A stretch of DNA of 64,000 nucleotides from Parcubacteria group bacterium GW2011_GWA2_40_23 (GCA_000996245.1 LBYP01000002.1:5352-69351); one strand, 5' to 3'. Positions 344-46,855 are shown, numbered from the stretch's first letter. Program-made: numbers and translations. The notes: a model not told the origin generated them from the letters alone.

Positions 344-345
344 GA

Positions 346-985
346 GTAAAAAAAGGAGGGTCGACGCACTGTAGCATCGACCCTCGTGAACATGTCTTTA
401 CCACCGCGACCTTGACGGGCTTGCGATCAGAACAGCCCCGATCTTGGTCCGGCATGGATCCTCGGGGAACCGGCGTCCCATAGATACTGGGACGCGATGG
501 AGCTACGTGAACCAGCTCGGATACCGCTTGCACATGGCAAGTTCTCCTTCTGCTGTGGCCGCGAGCGTGGTGCTCGTTCTTCGGCCTCGTTCTTGCTCCA
601 GAACCGAGTTCGTGTGGCACGTCGCGAGTTGAGCTCTCGCAGCGTGCCGTCAGAAGCCGAAGATGAGCGTACCGGAGTGGAGCCGCATGAAGCCTCCGTC
701 TGCGGAATTCTCGCATCCAATTTCGAACTTCGAACCGTGTTGATCTCTTGTTGCTTGGTGAACAGCCTGTTGCACTCGGTGTTCCGCGGACTTGCTCGAT
801 GAACACAGTCTACAACAAATGAGTTCTGCGGACTTGTCCTACACGGGCGGGGGACGTGCTCTGAGCATGCGCACCTCCATGTTGTGGAACCTTGAGAACC
901 AACGTGGTGTTGATGGCCAGAAGCCGATATTCGAACGAACGCGGCTTCTTTCTCGCTAACACCACAAAAGCGAGACGATAAAAAT
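346..985 (-). other. GC-rich non-coding island A1, with no protein-like ORF in any frame
   Basis: Composition shifts abruptly. All six-frame ORFs are Arg/Ser-rich low-complexity and read through a terminator. The island ends (minus strand) in a 9-bp GC hairpin followed by a T7 tract. Confidence 0.4.
348..385 (-). terminator. Intrinsic terminator, minus strand (GAGGGTCGA-loop-TCGACCCTC followed by a T tract)
   Basis: Perfect 9-bp stem at 356-364/377-385, preceded on the plus strand by A7, which reads as U7 on the minus strand. Confidence 0.6.
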
Positions 986-1025
986 ATCCTATACTATTTA
1001 TAAACTAATGTCAAGTTTTTGGCAA

Positions 1026-1056
1026 AGGAAAAAGCGGTCGAGATGAGTCGAACCGC
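1026..1056 (-). terminator. Intrinsic terminator, minus strand, closing GC-rich island A2
   Basis: Stem GCGGTCG/CGAACCGC with an A-run on the plus-strand 5' side, which gives a U-run on the minus strand. Confidence 0.45.
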
Positions 1057-1270
1057 TTCTGGATTACTTGCTCGCCACGCCGTGGCACGCCGCTTCGAGG
1101 GAATCCAACCCCGGAAAAGCCTGTCTGTGGTAAACACTAAGGGGCCTTTCGACCTTAGTGCTCTGGACACTCTTCCATAGATCCTCCATGGTGTTTGTGC
1201 GTGCGCGAATCGTGACCGAACAGGATCTCTGCGTTGCTTCGCCGTTGATACGGCTTGGCAGTCCAGCATG
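1031..1270 (-). other. GC-rich non-coding island A2, multi-hairpin and possibly a structured RNA
   Basis: GC-rich block separated from A1 by about 45 nt of AT-rich sequence. Several perfect 7-8 bp stems are visible, for example ACTAAGG...CCTTAGT. No SD-led ORF is present. Confidence 0.3.
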
Positions 1271-11568: not shown

Positions 11569-12024
11569 ATGGAAAAAATGAATTTTAAAATTGCGACTCC
11601 CGAACGTGTCGTCTTCAAAGAAGACATTGATTCAGTTACTTTGCCAACAAGAGCTGGTGAAATTACGGTTTTACCAAATCACGTCCCACTGATTTCAGTT
11701 TTGCAACCAGGGGAAATAAGAATTCAAAATGAGGGCAAGGAAACAGTTCTGGCCATCTCGGGTGGTTTTGTTGAAGTTTTATCAACCAAGGTTGTTGTCT
11801 TGGCTGACACTGCTGAACGTTCAGAAGAAATTGATGTGGCTCGAGCCGAAGCCGCGATTCGCAAAGCGCAAGAATTGCGTGAACAAAGAGCGGGGGATAG
11901 TCGCGAGTTTGCAGCTCTTTCAGCACAAATTGAAAAAGAATTGGCACGTGTGAAAGTCGGTCGTAAAATGGCGCATCGGGTTCAAATGCAAGGCGCGCAA
12001 AGAAGTCAGCTAGAAAAAGAATAG
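11569..12024 (+). CDS. atpC: F1 ATP synthase subunit epsilon
   Basis: Last gene in the operon; N-terminal beta-sandwich followed by a helical hairpin. Confidence 0.8.
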   Translation: MEKMNFKIATPERVVFKEDIDSVTLPTRAGEITVLPNHVPLISVLQPGEIRIQNEGKETVLAISGGFVEVLSTKVVVLADTAERSEEIDVARAEAAIRKAQELREQRAGDSREFAALSAQIEKELARVKVGRKMAHRVQMQGAQRSQLEKE

Positions 12025-12040
12025 TATAAAGTTATAATAG

Positions 12041-12076
12041 AAGGTCAGAGTTTAATGCTCATGACCTTTTATATTT
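12041..12076 (+). terminator. Intrinsic terminator of the atp operon
   Basis: AAGGTCA-loop-TGACCTT followed by TTTTATATTT. Confidence 0.6.
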
Positions 12077-12118
12077 ATCATGATTTTGCTATAATTCCAT
12101 TGAATAAAAATAAAAAAT

Positions 12119-12616
12119 ATGGTGATTCTAGATTACATTTTGCTTGGTATCATTATCCTCTTGGGAATCTTAGGATTAAGAAGGGGACTAATTCAATCAG
12201 TTGGATCAATCATCGGCATTATTGTGGGAACGCTTGTGGCGAGTCGTTTTTATCCGCTGGTTGCAGATTGGTTTGGCGGATCTAATTTAACAACTTTGCT
12301 AACATTTATTGTAATTTTTAGCATAACTGTTAAACTGGTCAGTATCTTGTTTTGGCTCCTTGGCAAGATCTTTAAGATAATAACCATTCTACCTATAATA
12401 TCGCATTTTGACAGGTTTTTAGGCCTAATTTTAGGGCTTGTAGAAGGGCTGCTAGTCCTCGCAGTGATTCTAAGCTTTTTACTGAAATATCCATTTAACT
12501 ATTGGATAGTAACTCAAATGGGTGCTTCAGTTGTCGCAAAAGTTTTGTTGAAAATCGGGTTTGTGTTTATTCCACTTTTCCCAGATGCTTTGAAGAAAAT
12601 TAAATCATTCATGTAA
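12119..12616 (+). CDS. cvpA: CvpA-family membrane protein (colicin V production protein-like)
   Basis: MVILDYILLGIIILLGILGLRRGLI... four TM helices; typical CvpA N-terminus. Confidence 0.7.
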   Translation: MVILDYILLGIIILLGILGLRRGLIQSVGSIIGIIVGTLVASRFYPLVADWFGGSNLTTLLTFIVIFSITVKLVSILFWLLGKIFKIITILPIISHFDRFLGLILGLVEGLLVLAVILSFLLKYPFNYWIVTQMGASVVAKVLLKIGFVFIPLFPDALKKIKSFM

Positions 12617-12707
12617 TATGTCAAATGTAAAACAGTATAAAAGAAGGGAAAAGGGAAAAGGGATATGGGGTATGGGAGTTAGATCTTCCCTTATACCTTA
12701 CCCCATA

Positions 12708-13490
12708 ATGCTTACCCCAAATAAATTGTTTTTTTGTTTTCTTGCTTTTTTGATTATGCTTACAGGTTGTACTAAAGTAGGTGATTATTCTTTCGTCAAT
12801 TATGGACTTAACACCAAGACCAATGAAATAGTAAAATCCGCAGATGGTCAATCCGTTTCTTGGGTATCACAAGATGTAAGTGGCGAAAAAGTAATGAACA
12901 GAATTTTTTCCGCAACAAACACCGGTAAAAACAAAACAGAACTTTTGAGTATGGAATTAGAGAAGGAACGTTCTTTACGTATTTTAGGTTTTTATCCAGA
13001 GAATAGCGTTTTCGTTTATGCTATCGAATATCAAAATCCAAACTTTGGAGTTGCTGTACAACGAGAAACTTTTTATAAATTTTTTAATGAAGATAATTCA
13101 CACAGTATTGGTAAAGATTATTTACGATTTTTCAAAACAGATCGTGGTGTCATGGGCTTAAGAGTCGGTGATGTCTTAGCTTACTATCAACTATCAATGA
13201 ACAATGCCTATGCGGTTGATTCTAAAAGTAATTACATCCAAGATAGTAAGGTAAAAGCATTATTTACAGATGCACAATTAACTCCTGATCTTAAAAAAAT
13301 TGTCTATACTTTTGAATATGAACCAGCAACTCAAGGCTATAATCAGAATAAGCTAATGGTCAGCGATTTTTATGGGGAGAATCGCAAGGAACTTGTCGCC
13401 TCAGACAAAAGTATTGATATTCTTGAAATGATTGGCAATGATAAAGTTAAGGTCAAAGTCGGGGATGAAGAAAAAGAGTTTTCCTTTTAA
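12708..13490 (+). CDS. Lipoprotein of unknown function
   Basis: Signal peptide with lipobox LTGC (MLTPNKLFFCFLAFLIMLTGC). The internal ATG at 12708 is preferred over 12618. Confidence 0.55.
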   Translation: MLTPNKLFFCFLAFLIMLTGCTKVGDYSFVNYGLNTKTNEIVKSADGQSVSWVSQDVSGEKVMNRIFSATNTGKNKTELLSMELEKERSLRILGFYPENSVFVYAIEYQNPNFGVAVQRETFYKFFNEDNSHSIGKDYLRFFKTDRGVMGLRVGDVLAYYQLSMNNAYAVDSKSNYIQDSKVKALFTDAQLTPDLKKIVYTFEYEPATQGYNQNKLMVSDFYGENRKELVASDKSIDILEMIGNDKVKVKVGDEEKEFSF

Positions 13491-13532: not shown

Positions 13533-13705
13533 TCATATAAATATCAATTGTCTAGTAGAGGAGAATATGGATAATTTGTAATTCGTAAAATAATGTTTAA
13601 ATTTAGCTAAAATAAGTAAGTGTCCATATGATTCCTGTTGACAAACATAAGAAAGTATGTTATTGTTATGGCAATTGAACCTGTGCTACAACGATGGAGG
13701 AATCC

Positions 13706-13990
13706 ATGGATCTGATCGGATTGGACATGAAGGCTCGTCAGGCTCGGGAGAAGTTCACGGTCGTGACCAAGCTGGGTGATGCGGTCTGGACGCCGGCGGA
13801 GATCAACCGACTGGTGCACCAGTACAGAACCATCATCAGCACGCTTCCCAGGATGCCCTCCGTCGCGATTCTCGCGGGAGAGTACTCCAAGGACCAGCTC
13901 GTCGCGTTCCTCGGGACGGACAACTTCACCGTCGAGCTGATGGTCGGTCGCCAGAACCCCAAGCTGCCGTTCAGCGCTCCGATGCTCTGA
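13706..13990 (+). CDS. Small GC-rich protein, paralogue 1 (94 aa), unknown family
   Basis: GGAGGA SD 5 nt upstream. Shares KFTVVT..G..VW...RL...PR.SVAI.AGE.SK...LGTD.F.VEL.V with the next ORF. Confidence 0.5.
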   Translation: MDLIGLDMKARQAREKFTVVTKLGDAVWTPAEINRLVHQYRTIISTLPRMPSVAILAGEYSKDQLVAFLGTDNFTVELMVGRQNPKLPFSAPML

Positions 13991-14020
13991 GCGCGGCAAG
14001 TTCGAAAGAGAGGAACGGAC

Positions 14021-14248
14021 ATGCTGGTTCTGTTGACTCCTGCCAAGTTCACCGTCGTGACCTTGTTCGGTTTTGGGGTGTGGCATAAGGACGAGGTTCA
14101 ACGTCTGGCGAACAGGCTGAGAGCCTGCGTCTACACGTATCCAAGGAGGCTTTCGGTCGCGATCATCGCGGGAGAGCACTCCAAGGCTTCGATCGTGGAC
14201 GTCCTCGGTACGGACGACTTCGGCGTCGAGCTGAAGGTCAAGTGCTAG
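14021..14248 (+). CDS. Small GC-rich protein, paralogue 2 (75 aa)
   Basis: AGAGAGGAA SD. About 45% identical to paralogue 1 over the shared core. Confidence 0.5.
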   Translation: MLVLLTPAKFTVVTLFGFGVWHKDEVQRLANRLRACVYTYPRRLSVAIIAGEHSKASIVDVLGTDDFGVELKVKC

Positions 14249-14364: not shown

Positions 14365-17337
14365 ATGAGCTTATTAGAATCATCAAACAAAGAGCAGCTT
14401 TCAGCTATTATGCATGAGGCTGGGCCTCAGCTGATCGTTGCCGGAGCGGGGACGGGCAAGACGCGAGTAATTACAGCCCGTATAGCTTATTTAATTACAG
14501 AAAAAAACATAAATGTCGACGAAATTCTGGCTTTGACTTTTACTGACAAAGCAGCCGAAGAAATGGAAGAACGTGTAGATAAAATGTTGCCTTATGGCTA
14601 TGTCGACTTGTGGATTTCAACTTTTCACTCCTTTTGTGACAAACTATTAAAACGCCACGCTCTCGATATTGGACTCTCTAACAATTATAAACTTATAAAC
14701 GAAACTGAGGCTTGGTTACTGATTAAAAAGAATTTAGCGCGTTTTGATTTGGATTATTACCGTCCGCTTGGTAATCCAACCAAATTTATTCATGCTTTGC
14801 TAAAACATTTTTCGCGTTGTAAAGATGAGGGCATTTCGGCCGAAGAATATTTGGAATTTGCTGATGGTTTAAAATTGGACTTGGATGTAACTGATTATGT
14901 AAAAAAATTAGATTTGCCAGAAGACTTTGCGGAACTGAAGAAAGAAGAAAAACAAGCGTTGCTCAAACAGGAAATTATTCGAATTAATGAAATCGCTAAG
15001 GCATATCACACATATCAACAAATATTAATCGAAAATGATTGCTTGGATTTTGGCGATTTGCACAATTACGCCATTAAACTTTTTAAAGATCGTCCCTTGA
15101 TTTTAGATAAATATCGACGTCAATTTAAATATATACTTGTCGATGAATTTCAGGACACAAATTTTGTTCAATATGAACTCATCAAGCTTTTAGCAGCTCC
15201 CAAAAATAATTTGACAGTGGTGGGGGATGATGACCAGTCAATTTATAAATTCCGAGGAGCTTCTATTAGTAATATCATGCAATTTAAAGAAGATTACCCA
15301 AACGCGCAGGAAGTTGTCTTAACGGAAAACTATCGATCGGCGCAGGAAATTTTAGATTTGTCATATAATTTTATTAAGCAAAATGATCCTAATCGGTTGG
15401 AAGCGAAGTTGAATATCAATAAAAAATTAAAATCGAATAAAACTGAGCAGGGAGTTATCGATCACAAACATTTTGAAACTATCGATGCTGAAGCGCAGTT
15501 TGTTATAAGTCAGATTCGAGAAATACAAAAAGTAACTCAGTGCGAGTGGAAACAATTTGCCATATTGGTACGTGCCAATGAAAGCGCTAATATTTTTATT
15601 AGTTATTTAGATTCCGCAAATATTCCATATCAGTTCTTAGCATTACGTGGATTGTATACGAAGCCAGTCATTGTTGATTTGCTCAACTACCTAAAGTTGT
15701 TAGATGATTATCATGAGGGAGCTTCGGTTTATCGATTGTTAAATTTCCCATGTTTCAAATTAAAAACTGATCAAATCATCAAAATTGTTCATTATGCAAA
15801 GCAAAAAAGTTTTTCATTGTACGACACGTTGAAGAAGATTGTTATAATTCCTGGTATTGAAATGGAAACAATAACTCAGGTTGGGAAAATATATGCTCAG
15901 GTTGAAGCTGATACTGCTTTGGCACAAAAGAAACGTCCGACCGAAGTCTTGCTAAATTTTTTATACACTTCCGGTTATTTAGAACACGTAAAAAATTTGG
16001 ACGAAAAAATTGCTAAAGAAAATTTAGATTATATCCAACAGTTTTTTCAAAAAGTTAAAGAGATAGAAACCACTTACGAAGATGCGCGCATTAAAGATAT
16101 AGTCGAGGTTTTTGATTTAGAATTGCAATCTGGCGAAGCTGGGCGATTGGCTTTTGATGTTGAAACAGGTCCAGACATGGTAAAGGTCATGACAGTGCAT
16201 GGATCAAAAGGTTTGGAGTTTGACTATGTTTTCTTGCCAAATCTTGTCGACCGTAAATTCCCAACAGACGAACGCAAAGAGGCTATCGAGATTCCAGCAG
16301 CCTTGATTGAAGAAAAACTGCCCGAAGGTAATTTCCATTTAGAAGAAGAACGCCGACTTTTTTATGTGGCGATGACTCGAGCGCGACGTGGTTTATTTTT
16401 TACATCGGCAGAGGATTATGGCGGAGTACGCAAAAAAAGGTTATCGAGATTTTTAATAGAAATGGGTTATAAAAAAGATTATGACATCCAATCGACTGAA
16501 ACTATTTTAATCAAGCCAAGTAAATCATCAGCAGTTGATAAATTTGTTTATGAATTACCAAAAAGATTTAGCTTTTCGCAAATTGCAACTTACGAAAAAT
16601 GTCCTTTACAATACAAATACGGAAATATTTTAAAAATCCCAGCTTTTGGCAGTCATTATTTTACTTTTGGTACAATTATCCACTCAACTTTGCAGAAATT
16701 TCTAGAAGAATCGTATCAAGTTAATAATAATGTTCAAGAAGATTTATTTAGCAATATAAAAAAGACGATTAAAAAGGGAACTTTGCCCTTGGATCGATTG
16801 TATCAAGTTTATGATGATGTTTGGTTTGATGATTGGTTCCAAGATCCTAAGCAGAAAGAAGAATATTATAAAAAAGGAAAAGCTTTGCTGAAAAGTTTTC
16901 ATGCTGATTTTAATTCAGAGTTACCAGAAGTAAGAAATCTCGAAATATCATTTAAATTGCCAGTCGGCCCATATTTCTTTTCTGGTAGAATTGATCGAGT
17001 CGATAATTTAGAGTCTGGTTTAGTGCAGATCATTGATTATAAAACCGGGCAAGCCAAGGATGATAAATTAACAACAGATGACAAACGTCAACTTTTATTT
17101 TATCAGATTGCGGCCGAGGAAGCCTTAAAGTTGAAAGTTGAAAAGATGACATACCATTATTTAGAAGAAAATAAGAAAATATCTTTTATGGGTAAAGAAA
17201 AAGACAAGGAAGAATTAAAGAAAAGATTTATTGAAGATATTGAATTGATCAAGGCACAGAAATTCGAAGCCACGCCAAGTCCTTATGTTTGTGGTAGTTG
17301 CGATTATCGAAATATTTGTGAGCATAAAAAATTGTAA
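14365..17337 (+). CDS. UvrD/PcrA-family ATP-dependent DNA helicase with a C-terminal PD-(D/E)XK Cas4/RecB-like nuclease domain
   Basis: Walker A AGAGTGKT, DEFQD (motif II), and a C-terminal Cys cluster (CPLQYKYG ... CGSCDYRNIC). The ATG at 14365 is preferred over TTG at 14359. Confidence 0.85.
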   Translation: MSLLESSNKEQLSAIMHEAGPQLIVAGAGTGKTRVITARIAYLITEKNINVDEILALTFTDKAAEEMEERVDKMLPYGYVDLWISTFHSFCDKLLKRHALDIGLSNNYKLINETEAWLLIKKNLARFDLDYYRPLGNPTKFIHALLKHFSRCKDEGISAEEYLEFADGLKLDLDVTDYVKKLDLPEDFAELKKEEKQALLKQEIIRINEIAKAYHTYQQILIENDCLDFGDLHNYAIKLFKDRPLILDKYRRQFKYILVDEFQDTNFVQYELIKLLAAPKNNLTVVGDDDQSIYKFRGASISNIMQFKEDYPNAQEVVLTENYRSAQEILDLSYNFIKQNDPNRLEAKLNINKKLKSNKTEQGVIDHKHFETIDAEAQFVISQIREIQKVTQCEWKQFAILVRANESANIFISYLDSANIPYQFLALRGLYTKPVIVDLLNYLKLLDDYHEGASVYRLLNFPCFKLKTDQIIKIVHYAKQKSFSLYDTLKKIVIIPGIEMETITQVGKIYAQVEADTALAQKKRPTEVLLNFLYTSGYLEHVKNLDEKIAKENLDYIQQFFQKVKEIETTYEDARIKDIVEVFDLELQSGEAGRLAFDVETGPDMVKVMTVHGSKGLEFDYVFLPNLVDRKFPTDERKEAIEIPAALIEEKLPEGNFHLEEERRLFYVAMTRARRGLFFTSAEDYGGVRKKRLSRFLIEMGYKKDYDIQSTETILIKPSKSSAVDKFVYELPKRFSFSQIATYEKCPLQYKYGNILKIPAFGSHYFTFGTIIHSTLQKFLEESYQVNNNVQEDLFSNIKKTIKKGTLPLDRLYQVYDDVWFDDWFQDPKQKEEYYKKGKALLKSFHADFNSELPEVRNLEISFKLPVGPYFFSGRIDRVDNLESGLVQIIDYKTGQAKDDKLTTDDKRQLLFYQIAAEEALKLKVEKMTYHYLEENKKISFMGKEKDKEELKKRFIEDIELIKAQKFEATPSPYVCGSCDYRNICEHKKL

Positions 17338-17370
17338 AAAAAGGGCCACGCAAACTTGTGTCTGCGTGGC
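17336..17370 (-). terminator. Intrinsic terminator, minus strand, of the GC-rich secreted-protein gene
   Basis: GCCACGCA-loop-TGCGTGGC with an A-run on the plus-strand 5' side. Confidence 0.6.
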
Positions 17371-17396
17371 TCCTTGCGACGAGTTGTGACTCGGCG

Positions 17397-18377
17397 CTAG
17401 TTGGTGAGCACGTGGCTGATGTCCATGTCCGGACTGACGATCAGCTTCTGTGCCGTGTTCTCGCCGATGACCTCGATCGCCTCGTTCGGACCCGTACCCA
17501 GGTTCGGGATGAACCCGATCTGGATGTACGAGTACTGCTCGAGGGGATCGACGTCGCAGCGCACGTCGAAGGCCGTCGTGGTGCCCTTGGGTAGGAAGAT
17601 GTCCGTCAGGTCATGGAAGACGAGCTGCGCGTTCCATCCCTCGGTGTTTACGTAGGGTTGACCCTGGTAGGCCAGGGTGTGGCCACCCGAGATCAGGCTG
17701 CAGTTGCGCACCTTCTCGAAGTGGTCCCCGGTCATCATCATCGACAGCGTGACCTCGGTGAGAACGCCGTCCTCGGCGTAGGCCGTGTCTTCGGCGTCGA
17801 CCATCAGGTAGAACGTGAACAAGTGGACCTGCGAACCTTCGACGAGCAGGTTGCTGGTTTCCTTCTTCCAGACCATGACGGTCGAGAATTGCGGCTCCAT
17901 GTACGGCGCGCAGACTTCTTCGACGGAGCAGTAGAACGTACGGTTGCCCCTGGCGATGGCGTCGTAGAAGGCTTGGAAGTTGCTGTGCCAGACGTTCATC
18001 ATCGCGATCTGCTTCTGCGCCGCGATCCGTCGCAGCTTGTAGGTCGGGATCATGGCGATGGGGTATTTGGGGTCTCCCGCCAAGGCCAGCTTGATCTTCC
18101 AGGTGTTGGTCGTCGCGTTCTGCGTCGCCTTGGCCAGGAACTGGCCCTCGTACTGGAAGTAGTAGCTGATGTTGTCGGTGAAGTTGGTCCACCCGACGCA
18201 GTCGGTGCCGTACCAGTCCGGCAACTGGCCGGTCAGGTTGAAGTAGTCGATGCTTTCCTGGTTGTACGTCTCGGCGACGTACTTGAGGTCGGCGAAGGTC
18301 TGGGGCGGACCGCCCCCGGCGTACGCGGCACTCGAGAAGCACAGGACGGCGAGCAGGGCGATGAGGGTCTTCTTCAT
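17397..18377 (-). CDS. GC-rich secreted protein of unknown function (326 aa)
   Basis: Signal peptide MKKTLIALLAVLCFSSAAYA. GAAGGAGGAA SD. Consensus promoter upstream. Natural amino-acid composition, unlike the overlapping frames. Confidence 0.6.
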   Translation of the reverse strand: MKKTLIALLAVLCFSSAAYAGGGPPQTFADLKYVAETYNQESIDYFNLTGQLPDWYGTDCVGWTNFTDNISYYFQYEGQFLAKATQNATTNTWKIKLALAGDPKYPIAMIPTYKLRRIAAQKQIAMMNVWHSNFQAFYDAIARGNRTFYCSVEEVCAPYMEPQFSTVMVWKKETSNLLVEGSQVHLFTFYLMVDAEDTAYAEDGVLTEVTLSMMMTGDHFEKVRNCSLISGGHTLAYQGQPYVNTEGWNAQLVFHDLTDIFLPKGTTTAFDVRCDVDPLEQYSYIQIGFIPNLGTGPNEAIEVIGENTAQKLIVSPDMDISHVLTN

Positions 18378-18447
18378 CTCGGATTCCTCCTTCGGACGTT
18401 TCGAACCTTAGATCGATGGTGTACATCACCAATCTCTCTTTGGCACC

Positions 18448-18476
18448 ATTCTAGCATGTTTTTAATAAATTGTCAA
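18448..18476 (-). promoter_or_regulatory. Consensus sigma-70-like promoter (TTGACA-N17-TAGAAT) for the secreted-protein gene
   Basis: Minus-strand -35 at plus 18471-18476 and -10 at 18448-18453. Confidence 0.5.
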
Positions 18477-18661
18477 ACCTATTTTCATCGTTTTGCGAGC
18501 CTGCCTGCCGGCCAGGCAGGGAGCACTTTCGTTAAAAAGCGACGTGGCAATCTCTAATTCGATTTCTAATTAATCAAATCAATAGGTTATACATTTTTAT
18601 TCGTAAATTTAGCAAAATACTAGATACTGTCTAAGCGAACCTAACTGCAAATCGAGGATAC

Positions 18662-18696
18662 TAATCATGATAATCATGAAAATCATAGTTAATCAT
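18662..18696. repeat. Array of four (T/A)AATCAT direct repeats at 9-10 bp phasing
   Basis: TAATCAT at 18662, 18671 and 18690; AAATCAT at 18680. Same motif and phasing as 299-343. Confidence 0.4.
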
Positions 18697-18699
18697 GGC

Positions 18700-18735
18700 A
18701 AAAAAGAGCCCCACCGTTCGCGACGAACGGTGGGG
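18700..18735 (-). terminator. Intrinsic terminator, minus strand (perfect 12-bp stem CCCCACCGTTCG/CGAACGGTGGGG)
   Basis: Stem at 18709-18720/18724-18735 with A6 on the plus-strand 5' side. Confidence 0.7.
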
Positions 18736-18740
18736 CAGGG

Positions 18741-19364
18741 CTAGAAGTTCCAGACCAGGCGCAGGTACAGCACGTGGTCACCCGCGATCTCCGGCGTGAA
18801 GTCGTAGGCGACCCAGATTCGGCCCGCGCCGAGCAAGATCGAGGGGCCGATGGCCGCCTCGTCGAACGTCTTCTCGGAGAAGAAGTTCTCCTGGACGATG
18901 CCGAACCCAGCGATGTTGCCTGGCTTCATCCAGTCGAGGGTGGTCAGCGTGTAGTAGTTCCGCTGCACGTGCCCCTTGTCGCCGTCGACAGGGAAGTAGA
19001 CGTCGCCCTCGACGCACAGGAGCAGGTCGCTTGGCAAGGGCTGCGTGAGCCAGATGCTCGCGAGAGCGGACATGCCGCCGTCGTTGGTCATCCAGAGACC
19101 TCCCAGGAGCTTGAGGTTCGTCTTCGTCGACAGGACGCTCATCTCCGGCCCGAAGTAGCCGAAGATCATGGAGTTGCCGCGCATTGACACCAGGCCGGTG
19201 GCGTGGGCGTAGATGCCGCCCGTGATGTTCTCGCTGAGCGTGAACGGGGAGAAGGTTCGGCCCAGGGTGACCAGGAACTGGCCGTTGGACTCGACCTTGG
19301 CCTCGGCGGCCGTGGGGATGATCATCGCACACAGCAACAGGATCACGAGCAGGAAGCGCTTCAT
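18741..19364 (-). CDS. GC-rich small outer-membrane beta-barrel-like protein (208 aa)
   Basis: Signal peptide MKRFLLVILLLCAMIIPTAAEA. C-terminus ...YLRLVWNF (alternating hydrophobics ending in Phe). GGAGG SD. TTGACT promoter-like sequence upstream. Confidence 0.5.
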   Translation of the reverse strand: MKRFLLVILLLCAMIIPTAAEAKVESNGQFLVTLGRTFSPFTLSENITGGIYAHATGLVSMRGNSMIFGYFGPEMSVLSTKTNLKLLGGLWMTNDGGMSALASIWLTQPLPSDLLLCVEGDVYFPVDGDKGHVQRNYYTLTTLDWMKPGNIAGFGIVQENFFSEKTFDEAAIGPSILLGAGRIWVAYDFTPEIAGDHVLYLRLVWNF

Positions 19365-19438
19365 CGAAGCCTCCAAAGTGGTGTGACGTCCCGTGAAACA
19401 GGACATTCTAATTTATCATAAATAATAAAAAAGTCAAG

Positions 19439-19797: not shown

Positions 19798-20115
19798 ATG
19801 GATGCACGACAAAAGGTCGTGGCAGTGTTCGATCTTCCGCACGGTGAAGGTCAGGTCGATCTGATGGTCGACATGGCACTTGAGTCCAGCTGGACTGGCC
19901 AAGGAATCGATACTTCGTACTTCATGTTCCACAAGCCGCACTGCGGCGGTCCCATGCGGCCGATCAAGGTGGCGGACAAGAAGATGGTTCTGTACTGCAG
20001 CGGTTGCGTGTTGCGTCTTCAGCTTCTGATCATGAAACTGCCTACGAACCTGGGCGAACTCGGTGAAGCGATCAACGAGACCTGCACGCATTCGGATCTG
20101 CCCTCACGTTTCTAA
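19798..20115 (+). CDS. GC-rich Zn-ribbon-like small protein (105 aa), unknown function
   Basis: AAGGAGGT SD. HKPHCGG...YCSGC Cys/His cluster. Strong terminator follows. Confidence 0.5.
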   Translation: MDARQKVVAVFDLPHGEGQVDLMVDMALESSWTGQGIDTSYFMFHKPHCGGPMRPIKVADKKMVLYCSGCVLRLQLLIMKLPTNLGELGEAINETCTHSDLPSRF

Positions 20116-29686: not shown

Positions 29687-29878
29687 CTAGGCGCGTTGCT
29701 TGACCTTGAGTTGCATGTACAAGGCGATAGGAAAGAAGATCAGCCCGAAGAGTCGGTAGATCAGGAAGTCGCCAGCAGGAACCCCTGAACGTAAGGTTGG
29801 ATCATCTCTGACGAGACTCGCAGCGAAATAACCCCAGAGCAAATTGAGCAGGACGACGGCTACTGCGATAGAAAGCAT
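29687..29878 (-). CDS. GC-rich small membrane protein (63 aa, two TM)
   Basis: GGGGGAGG SD 3 nt upstream. TTGACA-N17-TAATAT promoter-like sequence upstream (minus strand). Hydrophobic helices. Confidence 0.45.
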   Translation of the reverse strand: MLSIAVAVVLLNLLWGYFAASLVRDDPTLRSGVPAGDFLIYRLFGLIFFPIALYMQLKVKQRA

Positions 29879-30120
29879 TCAAGCCTCCCCCAAAAGATTT
29901 GCGCACCCGAAAGCATATATTAGTTTTATTATACCTGTTTGTCAATAATTTGAAAAAAACAGTGATTTGCTGTAAAATTATGTTGTTATATGATTTATAC
30001 ATTAATTAATCAAATAAAAATCTCCCCGGTGGGGGAATAACCTTGTCTCCTCAACGTTTGTGTTGCTGTAATTCTTCCATGATCCATGTCCTATGTATAA
30101 CTAAACAATTCTTAAAATAT

Positions 30121-35069: not shown

Positions 35070-35315
35070 ATGTCAAAACTAGTTGATTTTTTGAAGTTTC
35101 CGTGGCTAATTAGAAGCATACGTGAAATAAAAATTTTGTATTTAATTGTTTTTGTGATGTTGGCGGTACAAACAATTTTGTCCGCTCTTTTATTTATGCG
35201 TCTCGAGAAGCTTGATAATAGCTTTATCGATTACCGCGAAACATCCATGAAACGAATTAACCAGATTTACGGTCAGGTCTATTCCCTATCGTCGAGAATT
35301 GAAAATAAAAAATAA
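35070..35315 (+). CDS. Small single-TM protein
   Basis: 81 aa; its stop overlaps the next start (ATAATG). Confidence 0.35.
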   Translation: MSKLVDFLKFPWLIRSIREIKILYLIVFVMLAVQTILSALLFMRLEKLDNSFIDYRETSMKRINQIYGQVYSLSSRIENKK

Positions 35316-38300
35316 TGTATTTATATAATATAAAAATAAAATTTAGTATGACAAAAACAATTTTCATGAATCGTGCTTTTGTCAGTATTATCGCCGTGGT
35401 TACTGTTTTTACCATGAGCGGTATTGCTGGCTTAATACAACCGGCTAACGCAGCTAATCCCCCGCTTGATCCACCGTTAACAACGGCACTAGTTTATTCT
35501 AATCTTGTTGAACCAACAAATTTGACTGTTGGCGTGGATGGAAGTGTTTTGATTGCTGATTTTGACCTTCAAGGAAATGATCAACCATTAAGTAGTTTTA
35601 TGGTTTATGTTGAACCTGTAGGAGATTTTGACCCAGCAACTGATTTGGGTGCAGAAGGTTTGGCAAGTTTCACTCTTGGAATTGTTGAATCACCACAGGG
35701 GCCAGATGACGTTTTATTAAGTTTTATTGGAAACACTCCCATGGTTGGTTCGGGATTCTTTACTGGTATGTATGCTTATCAACTAACTCCAACCGGTTCA
35801 GATCCTTTAATTTCCAGTACCCTTACCACGTACTACCTAAACGCCGTGTATACGGATACGGCCGTTGTTGGGCATTCATTTGTGGTAAAAATCACTTCCC
35901 TTTCTGTTGCTTCTGGTGAATCTGCTGCAGTTTTTACGAACGTAGTTGGAGGTGATCCTGCATTACTAACAACAGAAACAATGACTTTTGTTGAAGGCGA
36001 AGAACCACCACCGGGTGGGGATGGTTTTTCCTTGGTCGCCTACGGTCCGATGCAACAAATGACTATTCCTAAATACGCTCCTGTAGATTTTTTCTTCAAT
36101 GAAGATTTAAATAGCGCTGTGAGAGCAGATTTAGATAGTTATTTTCAAACAGACCCGGTAGTTGCTGGCAATTGGAATCTCTATGATGAATATTGGGGCG
36201 AAAATCATATTTATCATGTTGGGTTTTTTCCGGCTGATGGTTGGGAGACAGGTACGTCTTACAATGTTAAAGCAGCAAAAAGCATTACAAACACTGAGGA
36301 TGAAGCATTTTCATTGGATTTGGGTGGCGGTGATGGTTTTGAATATGGTGACATGGCTTCTGACGAACTTTTTTATTATTTTACTGTTGTCGGTAGTGAT
36401 CAAGAAGACAGTGGTTACTTCCCTCCCATGGCTTTCTTGGGTTATCCTAATAATGAAATGCATAATGTACCAACAAGTTTACAACAGATAGGTGTTGAAT
36501 TTGATCGTAATGATATGGATGCTACAACGTTTACTAACGAAAATATTTATTTAGTCAAAGTTTCACCTGGCGGTGGCGAAGAGACGGTTGATGATGTAGA
36601 ACTATCCCCTGCAAGCGGCTTATCTGGCTCTGTAAGTTTGTCTGGATTTACATTAGAGGCAAATACTAAATATAGGGTTTATGTAACTCGCGATGTCATG
36701 GATAGCCGCGGGAATCGACTAGCTGGACAATTTAGTCAAGGTAGTGAACCCGGTCCCTTTACGAGCAGTTTTTATACTGGTGGAGGTTCAGATCAGCTTA
36801 TAGCTAGGTACATGGGCACAAATTTGAATTTTTTTAGAAATGGTGCCGGACAAATTGTTAACGTCCCCACGGCTGAAAATGTTCGACTATCATTTGACAA
36901 TCCTTTAATGGCCTCATCATTAACGGGCAATATTACAATTGAACCAAGCTTGGGCTGCGGTGAAGGTGGAGATTTATCTTTGTCGTATGATGCCAACTCT
37001 TTTGAAGCAATTGTAATCCCAAACTGTCTTTTTACCGCTTCAACTTCTTATACCTTAAGCTTTGAAGATTTAATGTCGGTTACGGGAACGGAGGTTAACG
37101 CTGGTAGTCTTGTTTTCACGACAGGACTAGCAGATGCCGCACAACCAACAATAAATTCTGTTATGGCCGACAATTATGGTTTGATAATTGAATTTAACGA
37201 GCCAATGGACACTACTCTTGCAGAAAACAAAGGAAACTATGCCTTAAAAGTGCGGAATGATGCTACAGACTGGGCAGAAGTTACAGCCACTCCACTTTCA
37301 AATGCTGTTGTCAGATATGAAAGTGATAATAAAACCGTGTTCATAGATATCTCATTGACTGCTGGGTCTGAATATCAAGTAACTGTCAGCAGCAATTTAA
37401 CAGATTTATCTGACAATCCCCTTTTGACTGATGGCGGTGTTAATGTTCGTACCGGTTATGTTATGGACGCGTCAAAATTTGCGGGCGGTCAAGGAAACCA
37501 AGGCATGGGTGGTAGTACTTTCGACATGGGAAACATGGGAGAAATGCCAATTGCTGTACGACCTATGTCAAAATTAGTTGGAGTTACAACAAAATATTTT
37601 GTTGATTTACCGATAAGTCAACAAATTAATGCTGGTGGCAAAATTGAATTTTGGTTCCCACAGGGATTTATAACGAGTGCTGCGATTCGTGATGCGCAAA
37701 GTCCAGTAAATGGTGACTTTAATCAACCAGCACCAGGTAAACCAAGTTTTGCGAATACAGATCCTGCCGGCACAACCAGTAATGGTGTTGCCAATGATGG
37801 TATTGGCATAATCGGCGAGCGAACTATTGTAATTAAGTTGAGCGAGGGTACTATGCCACAGGATTTTTTGCGTATCGACCTTGATGGCATTGTCAATTCT
37901 TCTACTGTGAAAAAAGAAGATACGGCAGGTTGGCAGGTCAGCATAATGACATATAATTCTTCAGGTGTAATGTTAGAAGGGCTTACATCAATGCCATTTT
38001 ATACGAGTGCTGGTGGTACAAATTCATTGACGGTTGACATTGATGGCGTTAGTGACGGTGACGATGGTTCTTTGGGAGTTTACCTATTCTCCCCCATGAC
38101 CGGTCAAATTATGCAAACAGCGACAATTACGGGCGATGAGTCAGAAGGGGTGGCCGATGGTAGTGTCACTTTCAATAATTTAGATGATGGACAATATGAG
38201 TTCTTCACAGATAAAAATGCACAACTAGATGGCAATATGTACTATGGGAATTCATTTATGGATAGTATTTCGCTGTCAGGCGGTGAGGATGAAACAAGAG

Positions 38301-41300
38301 AAATTATCTTTTCTGATCCTGCAACGCAAGACAATTTATACGCATTAGAAGTTACATTAATTGGAGATTTTACAACCGATGGCGAAAATGACAATGTTGA
38401 TATTTTTGCTGGTTCACCAAATGGATTTCGGGTTATCACGGCTTCACCGGGCAATACTGCTGGTTATCCTGTGACTCTATATTTACCTGATGGTGAATGG
38501 AATGTCGGTATGGGGCCGGCCATGTCTGCAACATCAACGATGGCTTCTCAAATAGATTGGATGCCACCACAAAATCAATTTGTTAAGGTTTGGAATAATG
38601 GATGGAATGCGAGCGTGCAAGAAGTAATATTGGATAGCAGTAATATAGAACAGTATTCAATCAGCGGATCAGTTGTTGATGAAAATGATGTTGGAATTGC
38701 TGATGTTGAAGTTTATGCCTATCAACCGCAAGCAAGTTTCGGAAAACAAAGTGTTAAAACGCAGTCAGATGGTTCTTTTGTCTTGAACGTAGGCTGGCCG
38801 GGTGTTTATACTCTTGGTACAAATAAAAATGGTTTTCCGGAGTCTTCACAGCAATCGATTGCGGTTAATGATGATGTCTCTGATGTTAGTTTTGTGTTGA
38901 AAAAACCAGCTTTTACAATTTCTGGCATGGTAAAAGATTATAATGGTAATGGCGTCCCTAACGCTCCTGTTTGGTCCTATCAAACAGCGGGTGGATTTGG
39001 CTGGTCTGGGACATCAACAGACGTAACAGGTTCATTTATTCTTTATGTTGATACGGGTACTTGGATGGTTGAATCAGACCCAAAAAGTGTCGGGTGGATG
39101 CAATACTCTGATGCAATTGAAATAACAGATGAATCTGTCAGTGGCATTACACTCCAACCAGATACTGATCTTGATTATGTAACCATAACAGGAAATGTAA
39201 GCATAGATGGTAATGCATATACGTACGGACCTATTCGGGCTGTAAAATACAATGCCAATGGGTCATTCGCTGGTCAGCAATATGGTGGTCAAACTGATAG
39301 TCAAGGAGATTATTCAATAACAGTACCAGAAGGAATTTATCGTGTAGATATTTGGGCTCCTGGTTATGGAGAGATTGAACGAACAGACTCTGATGATTAT
39401 CCAAATAACCCTGCAAACGTAAATGCAACCAGTGGCAATGTTGACGGAGTTGATATTACTGTCGGTGCGGATGACTTAATTGATGTCAGCGTTAATTTTA
39501 CAAATCTCGATAGCGGCGAATATGACGGTGTGTCAGCTTTTGTAACACTTAGTGCTGTTAACTTGGGGACAGGAATCCCTACCGGATACAAAAACAATAT
39601 CATGATCAAAAACATTGCTGACCCAACTTTTGATAATATTGTTAAGGTCAAGGAAGGAAATTATTTTGCCTTTGTTCAAGTGCCAGGGTATGGTGAATTT
39701 ATTCCGTTAGAGGGCCAACTAAATGCGGCCACAACACCAGGATACATTGATGTAGGCGCTGGAAGTACCGATAGTAATACACTCACTATTGATCTTCCGG
39801 ATGTAGATAATTTAATTACAGTCACTGGCTCTGTAATTGATGCAGAAGAAAGTCCAGTAGAAAATGCTTGGGTGACAATCAATAACATGGAAAAAGGTTT
39901 TAATCGCGGAGTTAATACTGATAGTAGCGGTGAATTTTCGATTAATTTACCGGTTCTTCAATCAGGAAATTATAATATTGCTGTTGGTAAACCAGGTTAT
40001 ATGGCTGTGACGCCAGAAGCTGTTGATTTAACTGATGTAAATCTAAATGGTATTGCTGATGCATTATATGAATTTACACTTCAACAGCAAACAGCACTTA
40101 TTACAGGTAATATATTTGCTGATAAAGATGGAGGCACAAATAATGTTCTTGATGTGGGAGAAGGTCTCGCTTATGGTTGGATCTTTGCTCAAGAAACAAT
40201 TACAGGTCTAGTAAGTAATACACCTGTTGATGGCAAAGGATATTATCAACTTGGAGTTGTTAATGGTACCTGGGAAGTTTTTGGTAATGCGGATGGATAT
40301 GAACAAACACAGTATAAATCGGGCGGAGTACCTGCAACGATTGTTGTCAACAATGGAAACCAAACCAACAAAAATATTGAACTTGGTTTGCGTGCAGATT
40401 GGAACAAAAAAACCAAAAAGAGCCCCATGACTTTGAATCAAGGTGGTACTATTGATGATTCAGCTTCAACCGGAACTGGTGTTAAATTGGTTGTTCCAGC
40501 GAATGCCATGGGGACATCAAGTTCTTCTGGGTCATTCAATATATCGAACACAACATCAGTTGGTTCATCTAATACGTCTAGACCCTTTGGTATGGAAGGA
40601 AAAGTTGTTAGTGCTGTTGATGCAGATGGTCAACCAATCACGACATTAAGCGATTACATTGACATTGAAATGGTTGTTTGGAAATCAGAAGTTGATGCTG
40701 AAATTGCAGCTGAAAGAATGACTGAAATGTCTGATCTTTTATCCGCTCAACTTGGGTATTATGACAATTCAACAGATAATTGGGTCGCATTAGAAACAAC
40801 GCGTGTCGCCTACTATCAAGAAAATGAAGATGATGCAGAATGGAAAACTTACATTAGCGATGATGAAACATTAAATGATTATGAAGCTTTTATTACGGAT
40901 GCTTTGATTGACGAAACCTTCACTGCTTATTTCGACTATAAGCTTGTTTTCACAGCCAAAACAAACCACTTAACGACTTTTGGGGTAACAACCGCGCTCG
41001 GTGTTGCCGGTGGCGAGGAATCAGCTAATGATGCACCAAGAAGCACTAGCGGCGCCGGTTCAGCTGTTATTCTTGTAACTGAAACAATTGTAGACAAAGC
41101 TATTACAGTTCCCCTTTCAACTTCATCATCAACAGTAGTTTTATCAAAGGCAGGGACTATGAATTTTACAAGCTCCGGTTTAGCTCATAGTTTAACGCTC
41201 AAAAATGTTGATGTGACTGGTCAGTCAGCAATTTTAGTAGTAGCGAGTACCCCCTTCGAAGTAACGGCTAAATTGAACAAGGCGGAATTAGTAGACATAA

Positions 41301-42001
41301 ATAAAGATGGTGTTAATGACATGGAAGTCTTGTTAACAGCGATAAATTCAGCAAATGATGTGAAATTAACAGTGAAGTTATTAGTTGGGGCGAGTATAGT
41401 CCCTCCAGGAGCCGTTGTGACACCAACTCCTGTAGCTGAAACACCCGCAACCACAGCTGTTACCACAGAGTATATGCCTCGTAAAGCTGCTGTGATTAAT
41501 CTTATGAGTGAACAGCAGGCCTTAACTGACTTCATTGCTTTGACAAAACTCGTACCAAACACGCAAGCCGACAACTGGGTAGTAGATTACCTTGCTTATG
41601 GTAATTCAACTCGTACCTTGGCAATGTCAGCTCGAGAAAGAAAGGGCATCTTGGAAGATTTTATCTCAATTTATGGCAACTTACCTAAGACTGAAAGTGA
41701 TTGGAAGGCTCTAGCTGAAATAGCGGCCGGTAAAGTCACTCCTAAGCGTGTTATTGCTCAGGAAGTTAAAGCGATCAAGGAATTCTTTAAAATCTTTAAG
41801 AAGACTGTTAATTTTAAAGATAAAACCAACGAATCCTTTGTTCACAAATTGTCTTATAGAATGCGAGTTGATCAGCGGAATTTAGCTAAGGAGCAAACAG
41901 CTTTAACTAAATTTATAAAAGTGTATCAAAAGAAGCCTTGGGATGGATATGCTTGGTCGATTGTGAGAGCACTCGCCTATTCTGGGATATTAGACAAATA
42001 A
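35315..42001 (+). CDS. Giant secreted/surface protein (2228 aa) with tandem Ig-like and carboxypeptidase-regulatory-like beta-sandwich repeats
   Basis: Signal peptide (...GIAGLIQPANA). At least five repeats of the pattern hydrophobic-T/S-I-S/T-G-x-V-x-D...G-V-Y-T-L. Confidence 0.7.
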   Translation: MYLYNIKIKFSMTKTIFMNRAFVSIIAVVTVFTMSGIAGLIQPANAANPPLDPPLTTALVYSNLVEPTNLTVGVDGSVLIADFDLQGNDQPLSSFMVYVEPVGDFDPATDLGAEGLASFTLGIVESPQGPDDVLLSFIGNTPMVGSGFFTGMYAYQLTPTGSDPLISSTLTTYYLNAVYTDTAVVGHSFVVKITSLSVASGESAAVFTNVVGGDPALLTTETMTFVEGEEPPPGGDGFSLVAYGPMQQMTIPKYAPVDFFFNEDLNSAVRADLDSYFQTDPVVAGNWNLYDEYWGENHIYHVGFFPADGWETGTSYNVKAAKSITNTEDEAFSLDLGGGDGFEYGDMASDELFYYFTVVGSDQEDSGYFPPMAFLGYPNNEMHNVPTSLQQIGVEFDRNDMDATTFTNENIYLVKVSPGGGEETVDDVELSPASGLSGSVSLSGFTLEANTKYRVYVTRDVMDSRGNRLAGQFSQGSEPGPFTSSFYTGGGSDQLIARYMGTNLNFFRNGAGQIVNVPTAENVRLSFDNPLMASSLTGNITIEPSLGCGEGGDLSLSYDANSFEAIVIPNCLFTASTSYTLSFEDLMSVTGTEVNAGSLVFTTGLADAAQPTINSVMADNYGLIIEFNEPMDTTLAENKGNYALKVRNDATDWAEVTATPLSNAVVRYESDNKTVFIDISLTAGSEYQVTVSSNLTDLSDNPLLTDGGVNVRTGYVMDASKFAGGQGNQGMGGSTFDMGNMGEMPIAVRPMSKLVGVTTKYFVDLPISQQINAGGKIEFWFPQGFITSAAIRDAQSPVNGDFNQPAPGKPSFANTDPAGTTSNGVANDGIGIIGERTIVIKLSEGTMPQDFLRIDLDGIVNSSTVKKEDTAGWQVSIMTYNSSGVMLEGLTSMPFYTSAGGTNSLTVDIDGVSDGDDGSLGVYLFSPMTGQIMQTATITGDESEGVADGSVTFNNLDDGQYEFFTDKNAQLDGNMYYGNSFMDSISLSGGEDETREIIFSDPATQDNLYALEVTLIGDFTTDGENDNVDIFAGSPNGFRVITASPGNTAGYPVTLYLPDGEWNVGMGPAMSATSTMASQIDWMPPQNQFVKVWNNGWNASVQEVILDSSNIEQYSISGSVVDENDVGIADVEVYAYQPQASFGKQSVKTQSDGSFVLNVGWPGVYTLGTNKNGFPESSQQSIAVNDDVSDVSFVLKKPAFTISGMVKDYNGNGVPNAPVWSYQTAGGFGWSGTSTDVTGSFILYVDTGTWMVESDPKSVGWMQYSDAIEITDESVSGITLQPDTDLDYVTITGNVSIDGNAYTYGPIRAVKYNANGSFAGQQYGGQTDSQGDYSITVPEGIYRVDIWAPGYGEIERTDSDDYPNNPANVNATSGNVDGVDITVGADDLIDVSVNFTNLDSGEYDGVSAFVTLSAVNLGTGIPTGYKNNIMIKNIADPTFDNIVKVKEGNYFAFVQVPGYGEFIPLEGQLNAATTPGYIDVGAGSTDSNTLTIDLPDVDNLITVTGSVIDAEESPVENAWVTINNMEKGFNRGVNTDSSGEFSINLPVLQSGNYNIAVGKPGYMAVTPEAVDLTDVNLNGIADALYEFTLQQQTALITGNIFADKDGGTNNVLDVGEGLAYGWIFAQETITGLVSNTPVDGKGYYQLGVVNGTWEVFGNADGYEQTQYKSGGVPATIVVNNGNQTNKNIELGLRADWNKKTKKSPMTLNQGGTIDDSASTGTGVKLVVPANAMGTSSSSGSFNISNTTSVGSSNTSRPFGMEGKVVSAVDADGQPITTLSDYIDIEMVVWKSEVDAEIAAERMTEMSDLLSAQLGYYDNSTDNWVALETTRVAYYQENEDDAEWKTYISDDETLNDYEAFITDALIDETFTAYFDYKLVFTAKTNHLTTFGVTTALGVAGGEESANDAPRSTSGAGSAVILVTETIVDKAITVPLSTSSSTVVLSKAGTMNFTSSGLAHSLTLKNVDVTGQSAILVVASTPFEVTAKLNKAELVDINKDGVNDMEVLLTAINSANDVKLTVKLLVGASIVPPGAVVTPTPVAETPATTAVTTEYMPRKAAVINLMSEQQALTDFIALTKLVPNTQADNWVVDYLAYGNSTRTLAMSARERKGILEDFISIYGNLPKTESDWKALAEIAAGKVTPKRVIAQEVKAIKEFFKIFKKTVNFKDKTNESFVHKLSYRMRVDQRNLAKEQTALTKFIKVYQKKPWDGYAWSIVRALAYSGILDK

Positions 42002-46799: not shown

Positions 46800-46855
46800 A
46801 ATATACACCTGAACTCTATGATTGTACTAAGTGGTACTGTTCTAAGGAGCGTGGC

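Follow-up and report, generated by a model that had tools for sequence, protein, structure and literature searches.

A native gene with GC-rich silent sites encodes a secreted protein in an AT-rich Parcubacteria clade

The window analyzed here is a stretch of 64,000 nucleotides from Parcubacteria group bacterium GW2011_GWA2_40_23 (GCA_000996245.1 LBYP01000002.1:5352-69351). Its backbone is that of a typical small candidate phyla radiation (CPR) genome, with genes for ATP synthase, aminoacyl-tRNA synthetases, MreBCD, PBP2, ClpB and an AddA-like helicase-nuclease. Its prolyl- and glutamyl-tRNA synthetases, its DciA and a 205-aa hypothetical protein (p205) are identical to GenBank proteins of the KKR075xx series from Parcubacteria group bacterium GW2011_GWC2_39_14 (contig UT32_C0009, 177 kb). 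Within the window lies p326, a minus-strand gene for a secreted protein of 326 amino acids (aa), with a GC content of 0.61 in its coding sequence (CDS) against about 0.36 in the backbone. A preliminary description of this DNA had pointed out the GC-rich segment and read it as a cassette of foreign origin encoding a candidate effector or toxin. We report that p326 is native, vertically inherited, syntenic and restricted to one Parcubacteria clade, and that its GC-rich silent sites are actively maintained.

Organization of the p326 locus

The p326 gene and its conserved partner p207 are flanked by genes for the AddA-like helicase and for DciA. The features of the pair are listed below (GC1, GC2 and GC3 denote GC content at the first, second and third codon positions).

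17338-17370, minus strand: intrinsic terminator of p326, with a stem at 17345-17370 (11 pairs) and a run of seven T residues (T7)
17397-18377, minus strand: p326 CDS, encoding the 326-aa precursor; the signal peptide is residues 1-20 (18318-18377)
18384-18393, minus strand: p326 Shine-Dalgarno sequence GAAGGAGGAA, 6 nt upstream of the ATG, read directly in the sequence
18448-18476, minus strand: sigma-70-type promoter of p326, with TTGACA at 18471-18476, a spacer of 17 nt (N17), TAGAAT at 18448-18453 and a TG upstream of the -10 element
18500-18520, no strand assigned: GC hairpin CCTGCCTG-N5-CAGGCAGG, a perfect 8-bp stem without a T-run, upstream of the p326 promoter
18522-18707, no strand assigned: AT-rich, non-transcribed spacer of 186 bp (GC 0.30) between the p326 and p207 units
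18708-18736: p207 terminator
18741-19364, minus strand: p207 CDS, 207 aa beginning MKRF, GC3 0.92-0.94
about 19405-19437: p207 promoter

With a promoter, a strong Shine-Dalgarno sequence, a single CDS and a strong terminator, p326 is a self-contained monocistronic unit. Its promoter agrees with the consensus at 11 of 12 positions and ranks first among the 32 promoter-like sites found between 13 and 21 kb, and its terminator has a folding energy of -30.8 kcal/mol (z -7.4). The open reading frame (ORF), the promoter, the Shine-Dalgarno sequence and the T7-tailed terminator are all present in the sequence as the preliminary description had given them. The 8-bp hairpin that it placed at 18501-18521 has the perfect stem described and lies one base away; the folding energy of this hairpin is ordinary for its composition (z -1.1), and its conservation is not evident at orthologous loci.

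p207 represents a second secreted ORFan family, with a signal peptide ending in TAAEA/KVES (the slash marks the cleavage site), a β-rich protein and no known domain. Both genes run opposite to the plus-oriented backbone of 1.5-42 kb, where the GC skew is positive, and so are probably head-on to replication. A tRNA scan found no tRNA in the window, and the borders of the locus carry no mobility genes or direct repeats, the only repeats being hairpins.

Export and predicted structure of p326

The precursor begins with the signal peptide MKKTLIALLAVLCFSSAAYA, which consists of the positively charged n-region MKK, the hydrophobic h-region TLIALLAVLCFSS and the AYA of the cleavage site AYA/GGG, and which is followed by GGGPP. 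An A-x-A/GG(G) junction is kept in all eight full-length homologues. Sequence rules and this conservation together predict that p326 is exported by the Sec pathway and cut by signal peptidase I at AYA/GGG, the cleavage point that had been proposed. The six cysteines counted previously (residues 13, 60, 150, 156, 226 and 274) are those of the precursor; Cys13 lies inside the signal peptide, so that the mature protein has five. The context of Cys13 (A-V-L-C) is not a lipobox ([LVI][ASTVI][GAS]C) and the residue is missing from the homologues, so that p326 does not qualify as a lipoprotein processed by signal peptidase II. The features conserved in the family are the mature N-terminus, Cys150, Cys226, Cys274 and the C-terminal strands. 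The mature N-terminus itself (18303-18317) reads GG(G)PP in nearly all family members; one may speculate that an exposed oligoglycine of this kind could provide a flexible linker or accept a sortase-type ligation.

Searches of Pfam (E <= 1), NCBIfam, PHROGs and PDB sequences assigned p326 to no family, in agreement with the earlier proposal of a novel secreted family lacking a recognizable domain. AlphaFold gave nothing of use from the single sequence (predicted local distance difference test score [pLDDT] 38.6), whereas AlphaFold2 with a 12-sequence alignment reached a pLDDT of 85.6. In this model the mature protein of about 306 aa has three long helices (28-49, 59-99 and 107-151, a bundle spanning about 28-151) and a β-sandwich (about 165-325). 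When the β-sandwich was compared with the PDB by Foldseek, the best matches were the cohesin-like modules 2jh2 (Clostridium perfringens GH84C) and 4n2o (Ruminococcus flavefaciens CohG), at E 7e-5 to 3e-4 and probability 0.92-1.0, with other matches to immunoglobulin-like domains of adhesins and pilins (AspA, PsaA, SpaP). A structure search of a viral library produced nothing useful. Unlike cohesins, p326 has no match to Pfam PF00963 (E <= 1) or, in a profile search, to the PDB, carries a three-helix bundle fused at its N-terminal side, and has no evident dockerin partner; the weak likeness is one of fold, not of family membership. We regard p326 as firmly established to be a Sec-secreted two-domain protein that evolves very fast.

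The suggestion that p326 is an effector or toxin is not supported. Searches of Pfam, NCBIfam, PHROG and PDB (PADLOC was not searched) revealed no toxin or enzyme domain, immunity-like neighbor or secretion-system marker, and the only signal of fold is the weak cohesin- or adhesin-like one. The neighboring p207 product is itself secreted, unlike a small cytoplasmic immunity-like protein. As to a diversity-generating retroelement, no reverse transcriptase-like ORF or long direct repeat of p326 was noticed among the annotated ORFs of the window, though no dedicated search was made, and the divergence of p326 is distributed along the whole protein rather than in a C-terminal patch.

Homologues and synteny

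When 1.84 billion representative proteins were searched exhaustively with phmmer, 12 homologues of p326 came to light, the best at 45% identity. All those that could be placed lie in low-GC contexts, and none was found in a high-GC genome. A word-indexed protein search, with either p326 alone or a family profile, found only p326 itself and one distant member. The homologues make up a family that has not been described before. Related loci, designated by L numbers, comprised the homologue contigs and the loci obtained in scans with an AddA alignment and a 6-member p326 subset.

The order AddA ← p326 ← p207 / DciA → p105 → membrane protein → prolyl-tRNA synthetase is found in L002, L005, L008-10, L011-13 and L015, and p326 adjoins AddA in L006 and L007 as well. 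Overall, at least nine related low-GC Parcubacteria lineages carry the p326/p207 pair between the genes for the AddA-like helicase and DciA, and every examined member of the clade, which is placed near Candidatus Kuenenbacteria, has p326 at this position. In L005 and L008 the orthologues, too, follow near-consensus promoters, with a weaker one in L002, and terminators were found after the upstream genes in these same three loci. The identity of p207 to its orthologues is 67% in L011, 57% in L015, 55-56% in L002, 51% in L005 and 37-40% in L008, where the matching AddA values are 91, 75, 83 (C-terminal 94 aa only), 66 and 68%; p207 thus ranks with the backbone, which argues for vertical descent.

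Every orthologue and paralogue of p326 has a GC3 of 0.68-0.97, while the neighboring genes have 0.25-0.39. The lineages are well separated, with AddA identities of 64-68% (loci with at least 469 aa of AddA). At 4-fold degenerate sites of identical residues, third-base identity of p326 between lineages is 0.32-0.45, against 0.31-0.39 by chance, and that of AddA is 0.32-0.39, against 0.28-0.31 (loci with enough sites). Since these sites are saturated and GC3 is nevertheless high, the composition must be actively maintained rather than a relic of transfer; a foreign composition in passive decay would by now be near 0.3.

These data bear directly on the reading given in the preliminary description, namely a recent cassette from a high-GC donor encoding a secreted effector or toxin. 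The codon usage of p326 does resemble that of an organism of about 65-70% GC, the gene is an ORFan set among backbone genes, with a promoter and a terminator of its own, and the product has a signal peptide and Cys residues. However, the gene is syntenic in at least nine diverged lineages, all of low GC, where its silent sites are saturated and high GC3 is retained in every copy, and no high-GC homologue, phage match (by tblastn of p326 and p504, another GC-rich gene introduced below, against phage genomes), toxin domain, border mobility gene, tRNA or direct repeat accompanies it. We consider such a recent import very improbable. The codon usage is indeed atypical (GC3 0.91 versus 0.24-0.38 in the backbone), but being maintained across orthologues it is no sign of import, and the inference from atypical composition to foreign DNA fails at this locus. 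Like acquired islets and "moron" cassettes, p326 is an atypical ORFan with its own promoter and terminator, inserted between genes that are adjacent in distant relatives. Unlike them, it is vertical and syntenic, with saturated silent sites, an unameliorated composition, no mobility genes or repeats at its borders, and a promoter that is AT-rich and native-looking.

An assembly chimera or contamination from a high-GC genome would account for the abrupt change in GC content. Yet the GC-rich CDSs interleave with AT-rich promoters and backbone genes at 100-200 bp, and contigs of many unrelated samples, produced by different assemblers, show the same arrangement. Moreover, p326 was assembled independently in another run: in the Logan assembly of SRR29904083 the same gene lies on a 2.5-kb contig, where two partial flanking genes match the window neighbors by length and strand. 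No signal of a contaminant or chimera was found, and independent assemblies refute this explanation.

Two loci call for separate mention. In L015, a GTDB representative metagenome-assembled genome, the orthologue (11922-12914, minus strand) is divided by an in-frame stop into pieces of 133 and 195 aa, which could reflect a pseudogene, a sequencing error or read-through. L006 has tandem p326 paralogues at 408-1373 and 1573-2538, with GC3 of 0.69 and 0.92, the second of which is called on the opposite strand.

A class of genes with reversed codon usage

At least five genes in the window are GC3-rich (p326, p207, p98, p75 and p504), and several more are intermediate. Those beyond the p326/p207 pair, with the small syntenic gene p105, are as follows.

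13638-13666: consensus promoter of the two-gene unit p98/p75
13694-13990, plus strand: p98
14021-14248, plus strand: p75, in tandem with p98; the two are small paralogues with GC3 0.79-0.85
19798-20115, plus strand: p105, a small syntenic conserved gene with a Cys-x-x-Cys motif (zinc-ribbon-like) and an intermediate GC3 of 0.68-0.70
45075-45103: p504 promoter
45221-46735, plus strand: p504, GC1/GC2/GC3 0.66/0.42/0.95
46756-46786: p504 terminator
46794-46822: consensus promoter of p205
46856-47473, plus strand: p205 (KKR07588), intermediate GC3 of 0.54

As with p326, searches of Pfam, NCBIfam, PHROGs and PDB sequences gave no family for p207, p504, p98, p75 or p205. The genes p326, p207, p504 and p205 are monocistronic; like the two-gene p98/p75 unit, each combines a strong Shine-Dalgarno sequence with a near-consensus promoter and a terminator, which after p326, p207 and p504 is a strong one. 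The exact motif TTGACA-N17-TAnnnT occurs 10 times in the window where 0.99 is expected, a count that none of 100 shuffles reached, and eight of the 10 sites lie directly upstream of GC-rich units, which cover 12% of the window. Indeed, the top promoter-like sites are exactly those ahead of GC-rich units.

Base composition sets these genes apart mainly at silent positions. In p326, GC1, GC2 and GC3 are 0.52, 0.38 and 0.91; in about 45 backbone ORFs they are 0.28-0.62, 0.24-0.42 and 0.24-0.38. The GC-rich genes use TTC, TAC, AAC and ATC at 98-100%, C-ending codons overall (NNC) at 87-100%, AAG at 96%, CAG at 90% and CTN for Leu at 90%. They are the mirror image of the backbone, where A/T-ending codons make up 75-82% for the two-fold amino acids and Ile. 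Their amino-acid composition is shifted only mildly, toward GC-rich codons.

A simple codon bias of highly expressed genes was considered and rejected, as the genes for ATP synthase, ClpB, GreA and MreB have GC3 of 0.25-0.29. The bias of p326 resembles translational selection in being gene-specific and tied to the strongest promoter and Shine-Dalgarno signals of the region. Unlike translational selection, it is not limited to a tRNA-matched subset but favors every G/C-ending codon (AAG, GAG and CAG among them) and CTN for Leu, the difference is extreme (0.91 versus 0.29 in GC3), the proteins evolve fast, and the four backbone genes just named are exempt. Third-position G/C skew, examined as a signature of transcription or R-loops, showed no consistent pattern. 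In the literature searched, we found no description of GC3-rich gene classes in CPR/Patescibacteria, nor of a maintained codon-usage reversal in a conserved gene set.

Evolutionary rates

Rates were compared with L011, a 372-kb contig from a close relative; the ratios of nonsynonymous to synonymous divergence (dN/dS) are raw values.

Backbone: 87-99% aa identity, dN/dS 0.01-0.08
p326: 45% aa identity, 61% nucleotide identity, dN 0.52, dN/dS 0.83
p207: 67% aa identity, dN/dS 0.55
p98: 86% aa identity, dN/dS 0.39
p75: 91% aa identity, dN/dS 0.30

The p504 protein is 65% identical to its L011 orthologue. p326 and p207 are the fastest-evolving genes of the GC-rich class, and the GC3 of p326 is unchanged all the same (0.91 in the window versus 0.94 in L011). 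Identity at 4-fold sites exceeds chance by 0.18 in p326, 0.35 in p207 and 0.29 in the backbone, as expected of orthologues of about backbone age and not of recent imports. Synonymous differences within the GC-rich genes are mostly C↔G, which is what would be expected if changes from strong (S; G or C) to weak (W; A or T) bases were removed. Where residues are identical, S↔S changes separate about 20% of the codons in p326 and about 3% of those in p98/p75, and W↔W changes about 7% of those in AddA.

The p98/p75 pair (13694-14248), aligned with L011 4331-4879, has a 4-fold identity of 89%, where the backbone has 51%. Its silent sites are conserved far beyond neutral expectation.

The force acting on silent sites

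The anomaly in GC content keeps to transcription units. Non-transcribed spacers have a GC content of 0.26-0.31, untranslated regions (UTRs) 0.44-0.63 and silent codon positions of the GC-rich genes about 0.9, and AT-rich promoters and backbone genes break up the succession of GC-rich CDSs every 100-200 bp or so. The p326-p207 spacer does not align with that of L011, yet is AT-rich there too. The bias also reaches Leu codons at their synonymous first position, and it accompanies the strongest promoters. Because the effect stops at the edges of transcription units and is strongest at silent positions, selection at the level of the transcript is the most likely cause. On this view, selection on the message or on its decoding, with RNA stability or the robustness of strongly expressed messages as examples, would keep the silent sites of p326 at about 90% G/C against the AT-biased drift of the genome, and the same rule may hold for a small class of other lineage-specific genes with consensus promoters. 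With moderate confidence, we suggest that the force on p326 probably acts at this level. What might be selected is narrowed by the folding data. Per 120 nt, folding is about twice as strong in the GC-rich CDSs as in those of the backbone, but we found selection for a specific mRNA structure unconvincing, as the excess over synonymous shuffles is weak (z -1.1 to -2.7); the target would have to be composition rather than any particular structure.

The sharp edges bear equally on an explanation that combines ancient acquisition, perhaps from a high-GC donor, with GC-biased gene conversion through allelic recombination at diversifying surface genes. Such a history would explain high GC3 and fast evolution together, fast-evolving genes being plausible targets of recombination. 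It would also fit the mild shift of amino-acid composition, the GC1/GC2/GC3 values of p504, which have the profile of a genuine high-GC gene, and the existence of distant Patescibacteria in which AddA lies next to DciA with no insert. As in biased gene conversion generally, the GC excess lies at silent sites and opposes an AT-biased background. However, a regional bias should not end where a transcript ends, as it does at the 186-bp spacer and at the other flanks (GC 0.26-0.31); here the edges are those of transcription units, and AT-rich spacers separate the GC-rich genes. The 61% nucleotide identity of p326 to its orthologue in the closest relative should suppress homologous exchange, and GC1 and GC2 stay low despite fast protein evolution. 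Recombination-linked rises in GC3 have reportedly been seen in bacteria (by Lassalle et al. in 2015), with effects said to be far smaller than the 60-point gap found here. We consider this history unlikely.

A mutational process linked to transcription, such as error-prone repair at a strongly transcribed head-on gene that speeds up evolution and turns A:T into G:C within the unit, would likewise confine the anomaly to transcription units. It gains something from the head-on orientation and fast evolution of p326 and p207, from the high share of S↔S codon differences in p326 relative to W↔W differences in AddA, and from the codon choice of the GC-rich genes, which resembles that of the backbone moved by T-to-C and A-to-G changes. 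On the other side, the co-oriented genes p504, p98 and p75 show equal bias, synonymous divergence is very low in p98 and p75 (0.89 identity at 4-fold sites), and UTRs, GC1 and GC2 remain far below 0.9 although constraint on the p326 protein is weak. Moreover, the transcription-associated mutagenesis known so far is biased from GC to AT, the opposite of what would be needed. This process is therefore a poor candidate, with a small probability of being the cause.

As to function, p326 evolves far faster than its neighbors and is always paired with the secreted p207, from which we infer, with moderate confidence, that p326 may be a cell-surface or secreted binding protein and not an enzyme or toxin. 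p326 and p207 would act as surface or secreted binding proteins at an interface with an external partner that evolves in step with them, for instance a phage or the cell on which a presumed episymbiont lives. Taken whole, then, our reading is of a native, clade-restricted, fast-evolving secreted binding protein whose silent GC is probably kept up by selection at the level of the message or its decoding, and the balance of evidence tips modestly toward it.

Several observations weigh against this reading. The excess folding of the CDSs over synonymous shuffles is weak (z -1.1 for p326 and -2.7 for p207), and the GC content of UTRs is far below that of silent sites, which a purely RNA-level force does not obviously predict. 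The strong expression of p326 is presumed from its promoter, Shine-Dalgarno sequence and terminator only, and p326 evolves fast, whereas strongly biased, highly expressed genes are normally slow. The fold match is weak (template modeling score 0.2-0.48, identity 8-12%), which makes a binding function a guess. The experimental case that GC-rich synonymous sites generally benefit bacterial fitness is disputed: Mittal et al. (2018; PMC6112741) ascribed the earlier correlation of GC content with fitness, including that of Raghavan et al. (2012), to toxic RNA fragments. Finally, in Patescibacteria that are more distant, Falkowbacteria and Buchananbacteria among them, AddA stands beside DciA without the insert. 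Within about 20 kb they have no comparable GC3-rich gene, five loci having one or two short segments of 390-660 nt. The p326/p207 pair therefore either originated in the clade's ancestor or came into it from outside, and an ancient acquisition by that ancestor is possible.

The favored reading can be extended, tentatively and with a greater chance of being wrong than right, to the whole clade, which might use two codon "dialects": a small class of lineage-specific consensus-promoter genes held at about 90% G/C at silent sites, over times sufficient for neutral sites to saturate, and the rest at about 29%. If true, nucleotide composition would be under a force that acts on one class of genes and whose magnitude has no described counterpart in bacteria. 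Such a force could serve to keep a special regulon stable or translatable under attack on, or starvation of, AU-rich messages or their tRNAs; in the most extreme version, the messages could suit the decoding machinery of a GC-rich host cell. It has long been asked whether selection or biased gene conversion opposes the universal AT-biased mutation of bacteria, and the question is testable here. The case offers a natural experiment, with few genes, a 60-point contrast in GC3, sharp edges and orthologues in many lineages.

Annotation errors and other features of the window

Three GenBank genes in the window are spurious ORFs: UT32_C0009G0022 (KKR07561; 13607-14263, minus strand), antisense to p98/p75; UT32_C0009G0025 (KKR07564; 18774-19187, plus strand), antisense within p207; and UT32_C0009G0048 (KKR07587; 45184-46242, plus strand), in the wrong frame within p504. 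Wrong-strand calls of this kind recur in the JGI and ENA annotations of L001, L005, L006 and L011-13. The exact p326 sequence and the correct p98/p75, p207 and p504 products were found in the Logan gene calls only. Gene callers trained on an AT-rich backbone choose the wrong strand or frame in GC3-rich genes, and mis-called genes partly explain both the apparent rarity of the p326 family and the self-only results of word-indexed searches. A set of fast-evolving secreted CPR proteins, which are candidates for host attachment, is thus largely missing from protein databases.

Scans with Rfam models and for tRNAs returned nothing that would account for the segments of intermediate GC content. At 345-1014 (minus strand) lies a unit of about 630 nt with a GC content of about 0.55, an exact consensus promoter at 986-1014, a terminator-like hairpin near 355-400, no credible ORF and no Rfam match. 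Its RNA folding gives a z of -4.05, and the unit is a candidate large non-coding RNA. A second, similar unit at about 1020-1270 (minus strand) lies behind a promoter at 1274-1302.

Other genes are of interest in their own right. A CheY-like gene at 62319-62660 (minus strand), with a consensus promoter, encodes a 113-aa single-domain response-regulator receiver (PF00072), which GenBank names a PAS/GGDEF protein; it was considered for the GC3-rich class and set aside, its GC content being 0.52 but its 4-fold GC only 0.37. A gene at 29687-29878 (minus strand), lying in a unit of GC 0.50 and flanked by two plus-strand aminoacyl-tRNA synthetase genes, encodes a predicted membrane protein of 63 aa, with a consensus promoter at 29917-29945 and a 4-fold GC of 0.60. 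A further gene, at 35315-42001 (plus strand), has the codon usage of the backbone (GC3 0.28) and encodes 2228 aa with Big_5 and CarboxypepD_reg-like repeats, probably a giant surface protein.

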